Shown here piece after piece: positions 1 through 28,391 of a stretch of 48,044 bases of DNA. The stretch is from positions 186,001 to 234,044 of the forward strand of contig JAPEUD010000035.1 in NCBI GenBank assembly GCA_026026165.1, read 5' to 3'. Made by a program: the position numbers and the translations under genes. The notes under the pieces were generated by a model. It was not told the origin of the DNA and ran no database searches. It saw nothing but the letters and a program-made list of their open reading frames with translations. Every line of letters starts with the position of its first letter. The stretch's first letter is position 1. Source of the stretch: Sarea resinae. Taxonomy: Eukaryota.

Positions 1-182
1 GCGAGATAATCGTCTGGCTTGATGTCCGAGGTCAGCGTTAGCGCTTTCAGGTTCCGCGTCGTGTCCTCTGGAAAGGCCGGCAGCGTAAAGGACGGCAGCG
101 GGACCTGGGCTTGTTGGGGCAACAGCGGCGACGAGGGCGCTTGTTGCTTTTGTAACTGCTGTTGTTGGGCCGAGTCCGCCAT
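1..182 (-). CDS. 5' end of a gene truncated by the window edge; hypothetical protein (MADSAQQQQLQKQQAPSSPLLPQQAQVPLPSFTLPAFPEDTTRNLKALTLTSDIKPDDYL...)
   Basis: Open frame from ATG at 182 to the window edge. A CT-rich tract and possible 5'UTR intron acceptor lie just upstream. No family recognised. Confidence 0.6.
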   Translation of the reverse strand, partial: MADSAQQQQLQKQQAPSSPLLPQQAQVPLPSFTLPAFPEDTTRNLKALTLTSDIKPDDYL

Positions 183-424
183 TATGGAGCCACTGATCTG
201 TCTACCTTGGGTCCCAGAAGAGAAGAGAGAGAGATGTCAATGAAGAGCTAAGACGGCAGCGGAGTCGTAAAACATAATCGAAACTAAAGTGGTGATCGAG
301 GAGGGGCGGGGAGGGGAGATCTACGACTACTTATATACCACCATCAATTCTTGTTGACGTCCCTGCCGGCGTGCGGATCGCGATCGACGTGGCGTGGCGC
401 GGAACGACGGCGGCGGCCACGGCT

Positions 425-470
425 GCGATGCGATGCGATGCGATGCGATGCGATGCGATCCATGCGATGC
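425..470. repeat. (CGATG)n pentanucleotide microsatellite
   Basis: tgcgatgcgatgcgatgcgatg... seen directly. Confidence 0.9.
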
Positions 471-1106
471 GGGGGATGTGGGGTAGCTGGCCATTGTAGC
501 GAGGCGGATCCGCGTGCGGATTGTGGGGTAGTGTGTTCGCTACTTGATGAGGTGGGGTAGTGTAGGGGGGGATGTGTGAATGTATGGATTCCGTGCGAAC
601 AGGACGGTGTACGGAGTCAGTCAGGTAGATCGGCAAGCCACCGATACCAGGCAGGTGTCTAGCATCTTTGTGTGTACAGTATGCACGCATGTATGTATGG
701 ATCCATATCATCCGTAAGCCAGTCAGGCTTGAGATCCTGTGTACTCCGTAGGCAGACGATGCCCTGAGACCTGTGAAAACTTCAGACTCTCGATCAGTTA
801 CCATTCTCCGCTCGAGCTTCTTCGCGCCATCAATTCGCAATAATGACCGACTATTCTTTGGTACGGCTGTCGAGGACCATCTATTCATTCGCTCACAGAA
901 GAGTCTTGAGAATTTCTCAGGCGGCATCCAAGTCCTTTACCGCCATTCCACTCGGCCCAGCTGGAGGGACATTCTCTAAAATGCTCAGAGGGTCTGAAGA
1001 GGTGCCCAAATCACGACCAGCTCGTACTTCGTTTATACATCCGTCCATCTATCCAACGCCTAGCTATGTAATCGTATCCCTTATGCTATTATATCATATC
1101 AAAATC

Positions 1107-22878: not shown

Positions 22879-25499
22879 ATGATGAGAATCCCCGGATTGC
22901 GCCCGTCGGTTCCTCCATCAACACCTTTGTGTCTGGGGAACCTTCAAGATGGCGAGACGGTGTATCAGGTAGGCAATGCTTCAGTTCTGATCCGAAAGTC
23001 GTCATCTTCTCATGACCTCCACTACAGCGCTGCGTCCTCATTCACGGCCAATGCTCCTCATTCGAAGGAGATTCGGACTTCCTCTCCATCACCACCTGTG
23101 ATGCGGCTGGCGCCCCTACCTTCCCCAAACAGAGCTGGCCGATCTCCGAAGGACGATTCAAGGCCTTGATCATGCTCGCCCCCGGCAGCAACGTCTTGAC
23201 CCTCCAGAATCATCATAATGGTCAAGCCCAACAATCCATCGCTCTCTCGCTCACATATATTCCGCTGCTGCAGGTCCCGCCTGTCCACTTAGCCATCATG
23301 GTTGCCAAGGACTCCCCGCTTTTGATCGACTGTCCGTTTCACAAGAGAGCAGGCTTATCCTCAGCCCATGCCGATCTAGATGCCGCCATTGCCAAGTTCC
23401 GAGTGACGGCCTACATGTGGCAGGCGCTCACCGCTGAAGATATGCGTTCCAAGGGTCTCGGACGGCGCTCTTTCCGCATTGAAGAGGAATGGACCAACGA
23501 TACTCTCAGTCGAGATTTTCTTCACGCGGCATATGAGCCGTCTCAATACGGAAACGAAGCAATGCGTTCGACTGCCAAAGTGCATCTCATCCGCTCAGAT
23601 AAGACCGTCGCCGAGCTGAGGAAACCGGATCTTGCTCAGCAAAACTCGCACGCTCGTCAACCGGACAAACTCCACGAATACTTCCTGGCGGCGTTGAAAA
23701 AGCACGGTGCCCCGTTCACCTCCTTTGCTCGTCCCATCGTCGCTGGTCTCATCTTGGACTCGACCTACTCACAGAGCCAGGATCTCATCTTGGCACATGC
23801 CGCTCTCGGCAGCTCGAATCCGGGCGGAATCTCGCTCGGTATGTTTGGAAGCCACCTGACATACTCTTGGCCTCGCTTTCTCGAGGAAATCCCAGCTTGT
23901 CTCCTTGACATTACTCCTCCAGGGGATGACGTGGGTAATGATAATGGCGAATGCGGCACGAGCTGGGAAGCTTGCGCTATTGGACAAGGCGCTTTCTTGC
24001 ACGAGCTCGGTCATGCGTTTGGCTCGCCGCACAGCAAGGGTATTATGGAGAGAGGGTACGCACAGCACTGGCCCATGAACTTTCTGACGCATACGGCATA
24101 CTGCTCTCATACAAAGACCCACGGTAGCATGGTCCTTGACGGAATAACGCACAATGAGGCTCGCTGGGACATCAGCGATGCTTTACGCTTCAAAACACTT
24201 CCTCACTTCAAGCTTCCCACTGACTCGATTCTTAAACGTGAAATCCTTGACGCTTCCCCAAGGGTAAGATCGATGGGCGAGGACGATGAAAAGCAAGGTT
24301 TGGTGATTGAGTCTTCGGTCGGAATTGCTCGAGTCCAATTCGGAGACGTTTCGGAAGGCCAGCCGTCTATCTATGCGCCCGCGGACTCCGTGGTCTACTC
24401 CAAGGCTGAACTTGAGCGTCGGTTCGACCGGTCTCAACCGTTGAGCATCAACGTCCTCGGAATGAACGGAAAGGAAATCTCGGTCCACAACGCGTGGAGA
24501 ATTATGTCTAGTTCAACGTCGCTTCGTGTTCCAGGGTCATCAGTCGTACTCCGAAAACGGTCCGCCTGTCAGGATGATACCGAAAATTTCGGCCACCAGG
24601 CGATATGGCATTGGGGGGTTCTTCTGAAGCAGCTTGGGAATAACGGCGAGCGTAGGTCTTCTAGTTGTCATCGAACAATGGCCCCCTGGCTGACTGATAC
24701 TGGACAGTTATCCCGGCTACGGCGATTGATCTCCGAGTTGGCTGTGCCCTGGATGGTGCGATTGTCTTCTTTGCAGATGGTCGAAACGTTCCTTGCGGAC
24801 CGCGTTGGGAGCCTAACGGACAGCACCACCATTTTGGTACGTTGACATTCAAGCCTCATTGTGGGACAGATTCTTATCAGTAAACGTGTATAGGAGGACA
24901 TGCATCTAAGAGATTTGCCCTGCCACCCGGAGTTGAGATCGAAAAGGTAGAAGTGGCAGGTCAAGGGCACAATCTGCAGGGTATCAGGATGCATCTGTCG
25001 AATGGGCGTGCATATGGCGAATTGAACAACTATAATCACAGCGACGAGAATCTCACTGTCTTGGGTATGCACCATCTGCCAAACATCGACATTTTGGCCG
25101 TTGGCTATTCGATACTGATTGACGACTAGAACCGGCCAAAGACTCCAAGATCGTTGGCTTTTACGGCAGGAGCTCTTGGAATGGAGGATTCTGTGCTACC
25201 CTCGATTTTGGCATCATCACAGCACCGAGAGATGTTGATCTGCCGCTGGAGGCTTATAAGCTCCCAGAGTTGATCAACACTGATGGTGATACCGGTCCCG
25301 TAAGCCCTCATTCCGAATCCTTTCGAGACACAAACTAAGAGAGATATTTCAGAGGCCTGGCCGAGCACAACACAACCGTAACATTCGCTCGAACCCGGTG
25401 AGGGTGGGGGAGGATCCGGATGAGGATGAGGATGAGGATGAGGATGAGGATGAAGGTAATGACCCTTGGGACAGTTACGACACCATGGAGGATGATTAG
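22879..25499 (+). CDS. Putative zinc metallopeptidase (Metallopep-like) with a C-terminal jacalin-like lectin domain (~776 aa; exons 22879-22968, 23028-24651, 24708-24836, 24894-25064, 25130-25299, 25353-25499)
   Basis: GETVYQ|RCVLIHG, PPVHLAIMVAKDSP, AYMWQALTAEDM, GSHLTYSWP and the zinc motif GAFLHELGHAFGSPH. The C-terminus has DLRVGCALDG, FGG and KIVGFYGRS. The last intron is inferred. Confidence 0.87.
25419..25453 (+). repeat. (GATGAG)n hexamer repeat, probably coding a poly-Asp/Glu tail
   Basis: gatgaggatgaggatgag... lies in frame in the inferred last exon. Confidence 0.85.
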
Positions 25500-25917
25500 A
25501 TAGTCCAACGCAATCCATGACGAGAGCAGTCAACGAATTTCCTATGTACTGGAAGGCAACAGGGTTTTATTCACTTTAATCATGTATTTGGGACTATCTC
25601 GCATCACTCATGGTCGACCTTGTAATTGTCCCCGCAAACCAAGCAGATGATGATCGTGCATTCGATCTAGAGTTGTTGACTTTGACAAAGTGAATGCTGG
25701 TCTATAGAAGACCTCCACTGCTACCTCACTCTTCCGGCACTTGCATCCTCTCATCACACACTTCAGCTTTCTTCCGTTACTCGTACACGAGACCTCGAGC
25801 TCTCTTTCATCCCTGCATTCGTTCTATCATATTATTTCACTCATCTCGACTCTTTTTCCACTAAATCTAACGCTATTCCCTAATTCAGGTCACTACCATC
25901 CATCAGCCGCATCAATC

Positions 25918-27186
25918 ATGCCAATCATTACGCTTCAGCCACCCCAGAAGCGCACGGCCCAGCAGCTCAGCGAATACGCTGAGCATATACGAGCCAATCG
26001 CACATTAAACAAAGAATGTGAGGGCTATACTTTGAAAGGTGACAAGAAAGACATAATAAGCGCAGTTCAAAGATGGGAGCACGCCCAGGAGAACATGGAC
26101 CTTCGTCAGATCAGCGGACACTGTATGGCTTGGTTCAACGATTGCAAAATTCCGCAGCAAATCGAGCGCTACAACAACGATGCCGTCACGAAGTCGAAGC
26201 CTCAACACTTCACCTACATCCCGAGCTACGCAGACCGTCGGCACCTGTGCATTCAAGACGAGAGGGGAATGATCCTCGCATATCGAGTCCGGCTGCTCCC
26301 TTCGGAGCTGGAAATGCTCGTCACGGCCGACAGCTGGAACCCCTCTGCAGAATTCGCAGATCCTTTCACTCCAACACCGCCCGAAACGCCCGTCGTCCGG
26401 CACTGGGCTCTTCTATCGACTTCACGGAGAGACTTTCCGCATTACTCGACAGACTACAATCAAGACGCACTGAATGGGGCCAGGTGGTGGCTCGATAGGC
26501 TCGACGAACTATTCGACTCGTTGCCCAACGTACTGTGGAATGTGGCGCCGGAGATCTATGGTCGATTCGTCGGCCTCAAGGTTTGGGATCTTCTAGACGA
26601 ATCCAAATCCGGTCGTCGCCCTCTATGCGGCGCGTGGCACGGCTGCACTCTCACCCAAGGACAAACTTCAGACGGCGTGCCTCGTCTCAACGCGAACGAT
26701 CACCATATTGGCTACAATTGCCTCACGGGCTGGGGCTCCTTTGAATCTTCCCGCCTTCGCCTATGGCAGTTAGGTGTAGATATCGAGGTACAACCGGGCG
26801 ATGCGGTCTTATACCTTGGCCGGATTATCACTCACAACATCGTCGCTATAGGGCCTCGAGGGTCCCAGGGGAACTTTTTAGAATGCGGTACATATGACAG
26901 CAACATTCTATGGGCAAATGACCACAAGAAGGACATCATCGTGGAGTCGAAGTGGGTAGAGAAGGCTAGTCGAGACGAGGATGGGCCGGCCTCTAAACGT
27001 GGAAAGCTTACGGAGGAGCCTGCCACGGAGCATACCCCATCCAGTTCGATGGATTGGCCCACGGAAAATATGGAGGTAGACACCGAGGAAGAAGACATCA
27101 GTGGCCATCTGAAGACCGAATTCAGTTTTGACGACGATGCTGCAGACTACGACTACGGCCACGGGCCAAAGAGAAAGAGAACTTGA
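25918..27186 (+). CDS. Intronless 422-aa protein with a TET/JBP-like 2OG-Fe(II) dioxygenase fold, apparently lacking the HxD motif; acidic tail and basic C-terminal NLS-like end
   Basis: The segment GAWHGCTL..GQ...GVPRLNANDHHIGYNCLTGWGSFESSRLRLWQLGVDIEVQPGDAVLYLGRIITHN follows the fungal TET/JBP-like pattern (PHxD..D..G..C....G.F.GG.L.LW.L....E..PG......H.). The protein ends GPKRKRT. Confidence 0.7.
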   Translation: MPIITLQPPQKRTAQQLSEYAEHIRANRTLNKECEGYTLKGDKKDIISAVQRWEHAQENMDLRQISGHCMAWFNDCKIPQQIERYNNDAVTKSKPQHFTYIPSYADRRHLCIQDERGMILAYRVRLLPSELEMLVTADSWNPSAEFADPFTPTPPETPVVRHWALLSTSRRDFPHYSTDYNQDALNGARWWLDRLDELFDSLPNVLWNVAPEIYGRFVGLKVWDLLDESKSGRRPLCGAWHGCTLTQGQTSDGVPRLNANDHHIGYNCLTGWGSFESSRLRLWQLGVDIEVQPGDAVLYLGRIITHNIVAIGPRGSQGNFLECGTYDSNILWANDHKKDIIVESKWVEKASRDEDGPASKRGKLTEEPATEHTPSSSMDWPTENMEVDTEEEDISGHLKTEFSFDDDAADYDYGHGPKRKRT

Positions 27187-28391
27187 CGACATAGGACCGC
27201 CCGAATTGTGTTTAGCTCAAACAGGAACTGATCAAGAGCTCGTAATTTGTACTAACATTCATGGCGTGGAATCTGCCCGTTCAGGCAGGACGCTTGGCGA
27301 TCGTTCCATGTTGCCGGTCAAGTCGCTTAAGTTTGGGTCTAAGAGAACGACCTGGAGCTAAGGATTAGGAATAGGGGGAAAGGACAAGATCGCGAGTAGC
27401 GAGAACGTCACATTGCTTCTTATGGCTCTTAGTGGTTGTTGTCGCACTGGCTTGTTAGAGCATGCGCGCGACTGCGGCACGCCTATCAAAGGTCTGATAT
27501 CACTTTCCTGTCTTCAACATGCTCCGTCTTACTCTTCTTCAATGGCAGGGTGGGCAAATGTTCGCCCGATATCGTCGGGCGCAGTAACAAGGAGTTTGAG
27601 AGGCATCAAGTGGACGTTTGCTCGCTTTTATTGGCCAGAGCGATAGCTATCTGCTGGGGTCAGGGCTAGAAGATGGAAGGGTCTCCCCCACGCCGAAGAC
27701 GAAAGTGACATGGGATCTTCTCCTACCGCTTCTACGGTACTACGGTCGACGCCGACCGTTCTGATGGCGCAACAGGGATCAATCCCGTGGCGGCGGGATT
27801 GCTCCCACATCCTTATCTCTAGCCGTGATGGGCCATCGAGCACGAAGTACGCCTTCGGATGCCTCTCGCTATGCCTCACGCTATGCCTTTGGCTGTGCAT
27901 CAGGTATCTGCCTGTGTAACAGAAGCGATGTCTCAGGGTATGTGCTCACAGGCTCTCTCTCGATGAATTTCCTTAGGCCGAGGCCATCCCTTGTCGGAAC
28001 ACTTCTGTGAGCGGTTGCAATGCGCAGTACACGCAGCACCCCATTGCTTGAAGCCTGCCCTCAACCCCGCCTCCAGGACAATGATAAGGAGTCGGCAAGT
28101 AACTTGCGGATTGAGGTCTCTACTGCGGTACCCTGCCGCCGCTGCTGCGACCGGGTTGGACATGTAACTCTATCGCGGATCAACAGGATTCCTTGGCTCG
28201 TAATCGAATCGCCATACATATCCAGCACAGCCTATTGATCCCGGACAGTTGGACAGTGCACCCTGCGTCCCAGAACTATGAAAGCCATCCATGTCCACCA
28301 CATGAAGACCGTTCTTGACAATCAAAAGTGATCATCGTACCCAGTCGTTATCACTTTTCCCCGTCATCGTGAGAGCGTACTCATTGCAGTC

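Follow-up and report, generated by a model that had tools for sequence, protein, structure and literature searches.

TET enzymes oxidize methylated DNA bases. Can a fungal protein keep the fold of the TET/JBP dioxygenases, lose the residues on which their chemistry depends and still be maintained? This question is raised by a gene in a 48,044-nucleotide stretch of Sarea resinae DNA (GenBank assembly GCA_026026165.1, contig JAPEUD010000035.1, positions 186,001–234,044 of the forward strand), hereafter called the window, whose own numbering is used throughout. At 25918–27186 on the plus strand the window carries an uninterrupted ATG-to-stop open reading frame (ORF) that runs for 422 codons before the stop. 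A first-pass annotation, made from the DNA letters alone, had described it as an intact, intronless TET/JBP-like gene without the iron-binding HxD motif, and had proposed a domesticated, catalytically inactive nuclear protein. The present analysis confirmed that the protein is a TET/JBP homologue, and indicated from the aligned sequences that a canonical active site cannot form in it. We lean towards the view that it has kept its fold, lost catalysis and been retained as a pseudoenzyme, a reading that we favour over that of a relic in decay.

Homology and fold of the window protein

An exhaustive HMMER search with the window protein (the query, P0001) recovered 131 proteins at E≤1e-3, of which 51 reached E≤1e-10 and nine E≤1e-30, the query being counted in each case. 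The nearest relatives were 36–54% identical to the query, with a best E-value of 4e-41. The stop-to-stop frame starts at 25708 and has its first ATG at 25918, and the alignment with the relatives is collinear from approximately residue 20 to approximately residue 350, so that no intron is needed. The exact coordinates and the intronless structure first proposed for the gene were therefore upheld by both the ORF and the alignment. A word-indexed protein search returned only the query, or three proteins when a profile was used, and single-sequence phmmer against the PDB gave no match to the query. Comparison with the Pfam family Tet_JBP (PF12851), which had been suggested as a check, gave a divided result. 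Seventeen of 30 aligned family members matched the profile at E≤0.01 (best 1.3e-8), but the query alone scored 14.7 bits (E 0.018) and so fails Pfam's own threshold of 34.9. In the PDB, a profile built from all 131 rows matched CcTet, the TET protein of Coprinopsis cinerea (1e-7), and NgTet1 (1.4e-7), and the motifs were in register.

The fold was analysed further using an AlphaFold model built from the family alignment, which had a predicted local distance difference test score (pLDDT) of 76.7 and a predicted template modelling score of 0.76 and superseded a single-sequence model with a pLDDT of 34.4. The block-mean pLDDT of the core was approximately 75–96 from residue 151 and 50–91 before it, most of the 10-residue blocks within residues 161–350 lying at 90–96. 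Foldseek ranked CcTet first (3.8e-13, probability 1.00), followed by NgTET1, CMD1 and TET2. The VIA-align Z scores were 20.4 for CcTet, 18.3 for NgTET1, approximately 17 for TET2 and 14.8 for CMD1, and approximately 11 for FTO/AlkB. In the ESM Atlas the protein had a feature score of 0.95 to an ascomycete cluster, 17% of which carries Tet_JBP. Taken together, these results settle the TET/JBP homology and fold of the window protein, as first predicted. Its parts are as follows.

25918–27186 (+): whole gene, encoding the TET/JBP-homologous protein P0001 (ORF, family matches at E≤1e-3, collinear alignment)
25918–26202 (+): N-terminal helical extension, residues 1–95, common to the full-length relatives (alignment; model helices 14–30, 43–57, 68–75 and 79–91)
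26203–26922 (+): TET/JBP double-stranded β-helix core, approximately residues 96–335 (model, structural matches, family profile against CcTet and NgTet1)
26896–26979 (+): long C-terminal helix after the core, residues 327–354 (model secondary structure)
26995–27006 (+): basic patch Lys360-Arg361-Gly362-Lys363, a putative localization signal (sequence)
27007–27162 (+): acidic, low-confidence tail (charge; pLDDT below 50 for residues 371–422)
27163–27183 (+): C-terminal GPKRKRT, a putative functional motif (sequence)

The acidic tail and the terminal GPKRKRT noted in the first-pass annotation were both recovered, residues 351–422 having a net charge of −11 and a pI of 4.44. Acidic tails of a similar kind occur in several of the aligned relatives, and basic motifs are common in their tails. 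Residues Lys418–Arg421 fit what we take to be the classical monopartite nuclear-localization pattern, K-K/R-x-K/R, and this KRKR motif, together with the KRGK patch, suggests that the protein may be nuclear.

Catalytic and base-pocket residues

To compare the query with an enzyme of known structure, the family columns were mapped to CcTet via the HMMER profile alignment, and the resulting numbering agrees with that in the accessible text of the CcTet structure paper (PMC11040006). According to that text, His326, Asp328 and His376 of CcTet are the metal ligands, and no activity is left when any one of them is mutated to alanine. Arg385 forms a salt bridge with an analogue of 2-oxoglutarate (2OG), and activity is fully abolished in R385A. 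For the substrate base, 5-methylcytosine (5mC), the same text equates CcTet Gly331 with NgTet1 Asp234 and human TET2 (hTET2) Asn1387 at the contact with N4, equates CcTet Arg393 with NgTet1 His297 at the contact with O2, and gives Phe391 as helping to stabilize the base, which we read as a base-stacking role. The corresponding residues of the query are given below, with column counts for the relatives in the 131-row family alignment.

CcTet His326 (metal): query Arg256; family His in 107 of 123
CcTet Asp328 (metal): query Asn258; family Asp in 113 of 122
CcTet His376 (metal): query His306, kept; family His in 107 of 116
CcTet Arg385 (2OG): query Gly318; family Arg in 103 of 114
CcTet Phe391 (stacking): query Gly324; family Phe in 92 of 114
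CcTet Arg393 (O2 contact): query Tyr326; family His in 76 of 115
CcTet Gly331 (N4 contact): query Asp261, kept; family Asp in 89 of 120
CcTet Asp337: query Asn267, kept; family Asn in 87 of 120

In the window these residues lie at the following positions.

26680–26691 (+): degenerate metal motif Pro255-Arg256-Leu257-Asn258 (cct cgt ctc aac), in place of the family (P)-H-x-D (alignment columns)
26698–26700 (+): Asp261, retained, in the column of NgTet1 Asp234, hTET2 Asn1387 and CcTet Gly331 (alignment)
26833–26835 (+): His306, the retained distal histidine, aligned with CcTet His376 (alignment)
26860–26883 (+): the stretch Gly315-Ser-Gln-Gly318-Asn-Phe-Leu-Glu (sequence)
26869–26871 (+): Gly318 at the column of the 2OG-binding arginine (CcTet Arg385), with an inserted Gln317 just before it (alignment)
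26887–26895 (+): Gly324 at the CcTet Phe391 column and Tyr326 at the CcTet Arg393/NgTet1 His297 column (alignment)

Thus two of the three Fe(II) ligands have been replaced, His by Arg256 and Asp by Asn258, and the 2OG-binding arginine is also gone. The three sequence claims on which the idea of a pseudo-enzyme had been built, namely P-R-L-N in place of HxD, a distal histidine kept and an arginine missing from GSQGNFLE, were all confirmed by the alignment columns. Because Arg256, Asn258 and Gly318 stand in for two ligands and the 2OG-binding arginine, a canonical Fe(II)/2OG site, to judge from the aligned residues, cannot form in the window protein. NgTet1 (Naegleria; PDB 4LT5, 5CG8 and 5CG9) gives the same picture. 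Its H-K-D, K-H-V and W-R-I motifs align with the H, D, H and R columns of the family, and the equivalent of its Asp234 is kept both in the family and in the query (Asp261). However, NgTet1 is an active enzyme, whereas the query is without HxD, the arginine, and the equivalents of the phenylalanine and His297 positions.

All four catalytic columns are filled in 108 relatives, of which 80 read H-D-H-R and 28 have at least one change. Three residues are lost in only three of the 108, namely P0051 and P0052 (both R-N-Y-R) and P0119 (L-E-Y-R). The core of the query (residues 96–335) is also unusual in its charge, with a net value of −9 and a pI of 5.3, compared with 0 to +8 and 7.1–9.5 in those relatives of its clade that span the whole core.

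Place in the family

A maximum-likelihood tree was calculated from those rows in which at least 75% of the core columns are filled, 63 of the 131. The query falls within a 13-row clade (Shimodaira–Hasegawa-like approximate likelihood ratio test support 97) and a 10-row subclade (support 93). Where all four columns are filled, most of the clade members read H-D-H-R, and the catalytic loss is therefore specific to the lineage of the query. The named relatives are hypothetical proteins from metagenome-assembled genomes (MAGs) of Chaenotheca gracillima, Lichina confinis, Geoglossum simile and Candelina submexicana, and the relatives come from non-Pezizomycete Pezizomycotina. A metagenome scan with the 10-row alignment added only three short contigs, at 33–36% identity.

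P0051 and P0052 are of particular relevance here. These proteins of 634 and 749 residues, from Logan assemblies, have long basic tails and share with the query the same R-x-N in place of HxD. Unlike the query, they have lost the distal histidine (to tyrosine) and kept the arginine. By the tree, their loss was independent. The two are 76% identical with each other in the TET-like core and 44% in the tail, and apparently represent an independent, maintained lineage of dead TET/JBP proteins, as far as their sequences indicate. A dead subfamily shared by the query and these two proteins was considered and rejected, as they belong to a different, well-supported clade; they are only approximately 27% identical to the query. 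A coincidental, convergent origin of R-x-N is plausible, because His→Arg and Asp→Asn are each a single transition.

Retention or decay of the window gene

We simulated the neutral evolution of the ORF, using substitutions only, in 20,000 replicates at each of eight divergences between 0.01 and 0.3. At no divergence did the probability that the frame stayed open and at least three of the four catalytic codons also changed exceed 5.5e-4, and this bound is conservative because indels were ignored. It is thus improbable that the frame stayed open by neutral drift while three of the four catalytic codons changed. Among the conserved columns (≥70%), the query has kept 18 of 23 non-catalytic ones compared with one of four catalytic ones. 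P0051 and P0052, with a conserved dead core, may provide an indirect precedent for retention within the family. The lack of a signature of repeat-induced point mutation in the ORF, a GC content at third codon positions within the range of its neighbours, and its place as a single copy in the window among cellular genes point the same way. The claim of a pseudo-enzyme rather than a pseudogene is accordingly favoured by the simulation and this precedent, both of them indirect arguments.

Several results weigh against this reading, and most of them are those expected of a decaying relic, a gene whose function was lost, perhaps after loss of its substrate or of a transposon partner, and whose frame is open by recency or luck. 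The path of the query from the subclade polytomy is the longest in the clade, at 1.57 changes per column compared with 0.54–1.31, which fits relaxed constraint. The query matches only 19 of 27 conserved columns, the 13th lowest of 80. Five pocket residues have been lost together, and the acidic core and the missing base contacts could just as well stem from decay in general. At catalytic columns, the enrichment of losses is marginal (one-sided Fisher p=0.065, or 0.088 for a seven-column pocket set), catalytic substitution is frequent in the family (the 28 of 108 relatives above), and the simulation treats one pre-chosen copy, yet the ORF was picked for its intactness, which is a selection effect. 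Decay is also familiar elsewhere: the accessible part of Kojima 2025 (PMC12730594) gives 32 of 46 C. cinerea copies as likely active, so that dead copies are already known in that fungus. In addition, no orthologue closer than approximately 36–54% identity was found in the databases searched. However, the conserved neighbouring metallopeptidase (PF12044) itself finds nothing closer than 64% identity. The lineage is therefore poorly sampled, and the missing TET orthologue says little either way. Against a relic stand the simulation, whose bound would only tighten with indels, the 18 of 23 other conserved columns that were kept, a collinear full-length alignment that takes in the N-terminal extension and the tail, and an ORF without a signature of repeat-induced point mutation (RIP) although RIP-like DNA lies 19 kb away. 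On this evidence we regard a decaying relic as possible, and clearly less probable than retention.

The first-pass annotation had suggested a protein domesticated from a Kyakuja-Dileera-Zisupton (KDZ) transposon that still recognizes modified DNA, such as 5mC, 5-hydroxymethylcytosine or N6-methyladenine (6mA), as a reader or decoy. The column of the 5mC N4 contact (Asp261), that of CcTet Asp337 (Asn267) and the distal histidine are indeed kept, a nuclear-type basic motif is present, and TET/JBP genes of other fungi are often carried by transposons, according to the accessible text of PMC12730594. However, the two columns expected to hold the base by stacking and by the O2 contact read Gly324 and Tyr326, and the core is acidic where its full-core clade relatives are neutral or basic, which weakens the proposal of DNA binding. 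The proposed origin fares no better, for the window contains no transposase and the gene no flanking repeats, and nothing ties the clade to KDZ elements, the single weak lead (L001, see below) being of the MULE/SWIM type. We therefore consider a reader or decoy decidedly unlikely. It is more doubtful still that the protein remains an enzyme, either with an unconventional metal and co-substrate site made from Asp261, His262, His263 and Arg314 or with some other chemistry. His306 is kept, Asp261, His262 and His263 follow the degenerate motif, and Arg314 lies four residues before the lost arginine column. Yet the column of Asp261 has a different known role, and Arg314 is part of a query-specific insertion at which 54 of 130 relatives are gapped and most of the others have glycine. 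Moreover, two of three metal ligands and the 2OG-binding arginine are gone, and each single alanine mutation abolishes the activity of CcTet, as given in the accessible text of its structure paper.

If the window protein is a retained pseudoenzyme, it would still be produced and, although without catalysis, be maintained by selection, and could enter the nucleus via its C-terminal KRKR motif. It would then be likelier to act through protein–protein contacts than by reading modified DNA, given that its core has become acidic and its base pocket has degenerated. It might, for instance, regulate or partner chromatin factors or an active paralogue, or compete with them. DNMT3L plays such a role for DNMT3A.

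Genomic neighbourhood

The gene lies among genes for amino-acid permeases, an aquaporin, a PA-RING protein, a Gpr1-like receptor, a metallopeptidase, a glycosyltransferase and an OPT transporter, its own slot being between the PF12044 metallopeptidase and an amino-acid permease. The 89 stop-to-stop ORFs of at least 110 residues in the window gave no match to a transposase domain, KDZ or other, at E≤1e-5, in agreement with the earlier remark that no KDZ transposase was seen nearby. Neither inverted nor long direct repeats flank the gene within 24846–28391, where only short, chance-level repeats were found, and the 48-kb window contains no other TET-like piece.

The only genomic context recovered for a relative was that of L001, in which a TET/JBP gene at 1735–2934 reads H-D-H-R. 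Approximately 650 bp upstream lies a 5'-open ORF of 361 residues at 1–1086 (+), which the Atlas likened to MULE/SWIM transposase clusters (score 0.95) and for which Pfam gave no match. This is a weak lead to a MULE/SWIM-type transposase. If true, it would mean a Mutator-type link for the ascomycete TET clade that contains L001; the superfamilies named in the accessible part of Kojima 2025 (PMC12730594) do not include Mutator.

The RIP signs mentioned in the first-pass annotation are present in the window but not in the ORF itself. The composite RIP index of the ORF is −0.53, like that of neighbouring genes, and its GC content at third codon positions is 0.61, compared with 0.52–0.69 in the neighbours. 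On this basis we rejected the view that RIP had caused the catalytic changes. The block at 45001–47000, and partly 47001–48000, is AT-rich and RIP-like, with TpA/ApT ratios of 1.9–2.2, composite indices of +0.93 and +1.76 and a GC content of 0.31 at 46–47 kb; it is probably a RIP-mutated relic of a repeat or transposon. Elsewhere in the family, the commonest replacement at the first metal histidine column is tyrosine (seven of 123), and the distal histidine is changed to tyrosine in four of 116. His→Tyr is a CAY-to-TAY change at CpA. CpA is the preferred target of RIP, and some members of the TET/JBP family may have been inactivated in this way.

Other features of the window were as follows. 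Upstream of the gene, a GAGGAT hexamer microsatellite at 25410–25457 encodes, on the minus strand, a His-Pro repeat in an ORF of 130 residues (25126–25518). The PF12044 metallopeptidase gene at 23016–24842 (+), whose frame ends at 24845, is without the jacalin-type lectin part named in many of its orthologues of 700–750 residues; it probably continues in a further exon, or else is truncated. A short ORF at 42249–42590 (−) matches the PD-(D/E)XK nuclease family PDDEXK_12 (E 2.7e-7) and may be part of a gene that is mobile or has decayed; the other ORFs at 39–45 kb gave no Pfam match.

Comparison with known systems

CcTet (PDB 7VPN, 7W5P and 8JKK) is the best structural match, with 265 aligned residues in VIA. 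Both proteins are fungal, approximately 400 residues long and made of a single TET/JBP domain, but they are only approximately 12% identical. CcTet reads His326, Asp328, His376 and Arg385 and, according to the accessible literature, oxidizes 5mC and 6mA, whereas the window protein reads R, N, H and G at these columns. CcTet is also of the Kyakuja-linked AG type of Agaricomycetes in the accessible text of PMC12730594, whereas the window gene has no transposase in the window. The inactive TET/JBP paralogues of C. cinerea are closer in kind, since they too are fungal copies with degraded catalytic residues. As described in that text, however, they are multi-copy, Kyakuja-linked and basidiomycete, whereas the window gene has no second copy within the 48 kb and lies among cellular genes.

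Transposon-borne TET/JBP genes have been described in Pucciniomycetes, Agaricomycetes and Pezizomycetes (Kojima 2025, PMC12730594, accessible part), and the accessible part of a 2026 review (PMC13297926) mentions fungal TET/JBP only in Basidiomycota and Pezizomycetes. A literature search, which did not cover supplements, brought up no paper in which retained TET/JBP paralogues without catalysis are treated as a functional class. What is apparently new here is a TET/JBP homologue that is specific to its lineage, has no transposon link, apparently occurs as a single copy and has had its active site thoroughly dismantled.

Chromatin enzymes of other families also have non-catalytic paralogues, for example DNMT3L, JARID2 and Epe1. 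The concept is the same, a fold without catalysis acting as a regulator or scaffold, but these proteins belong to different families, and any such role of the window protein is conjectural. A broader proposal can be made from the likeness to P0051 and P0052, namely that fungi have repeatedly made non-catalytic nuclear TET/JBP proteins by the same route (His→Arg and Asp→Asn), perhaps with the arginine guanidinium in the place of iron, the changes being seen here and independently in those two proteins. These would form a new class of chromatin regulators comparable with DNMT3L, in Pezizomycotina lineages without described TET/JBP. We regard this proposal as speculative and rather unlikely.

Implications

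The analysis points to a TET/JBP family in classes of Pezizomycotina, represented by the Chaenotheca, Lichina, Geoglossum and Candelina MAGs, that lie outside the distribution given in the accessible parts of the published accounts. If the window gene is only decaying, it would be an unremarkable by-product of its family, approximately one-quarter of whose sampled members have catalytic substitutions. If it is kept by selection, the TET fold would be useful in fungi beyond oxidation, and the protein would be a natural, fully dead TET with which to separate catalytic from structural roles, a distinction that is still argued for the animal TETs.

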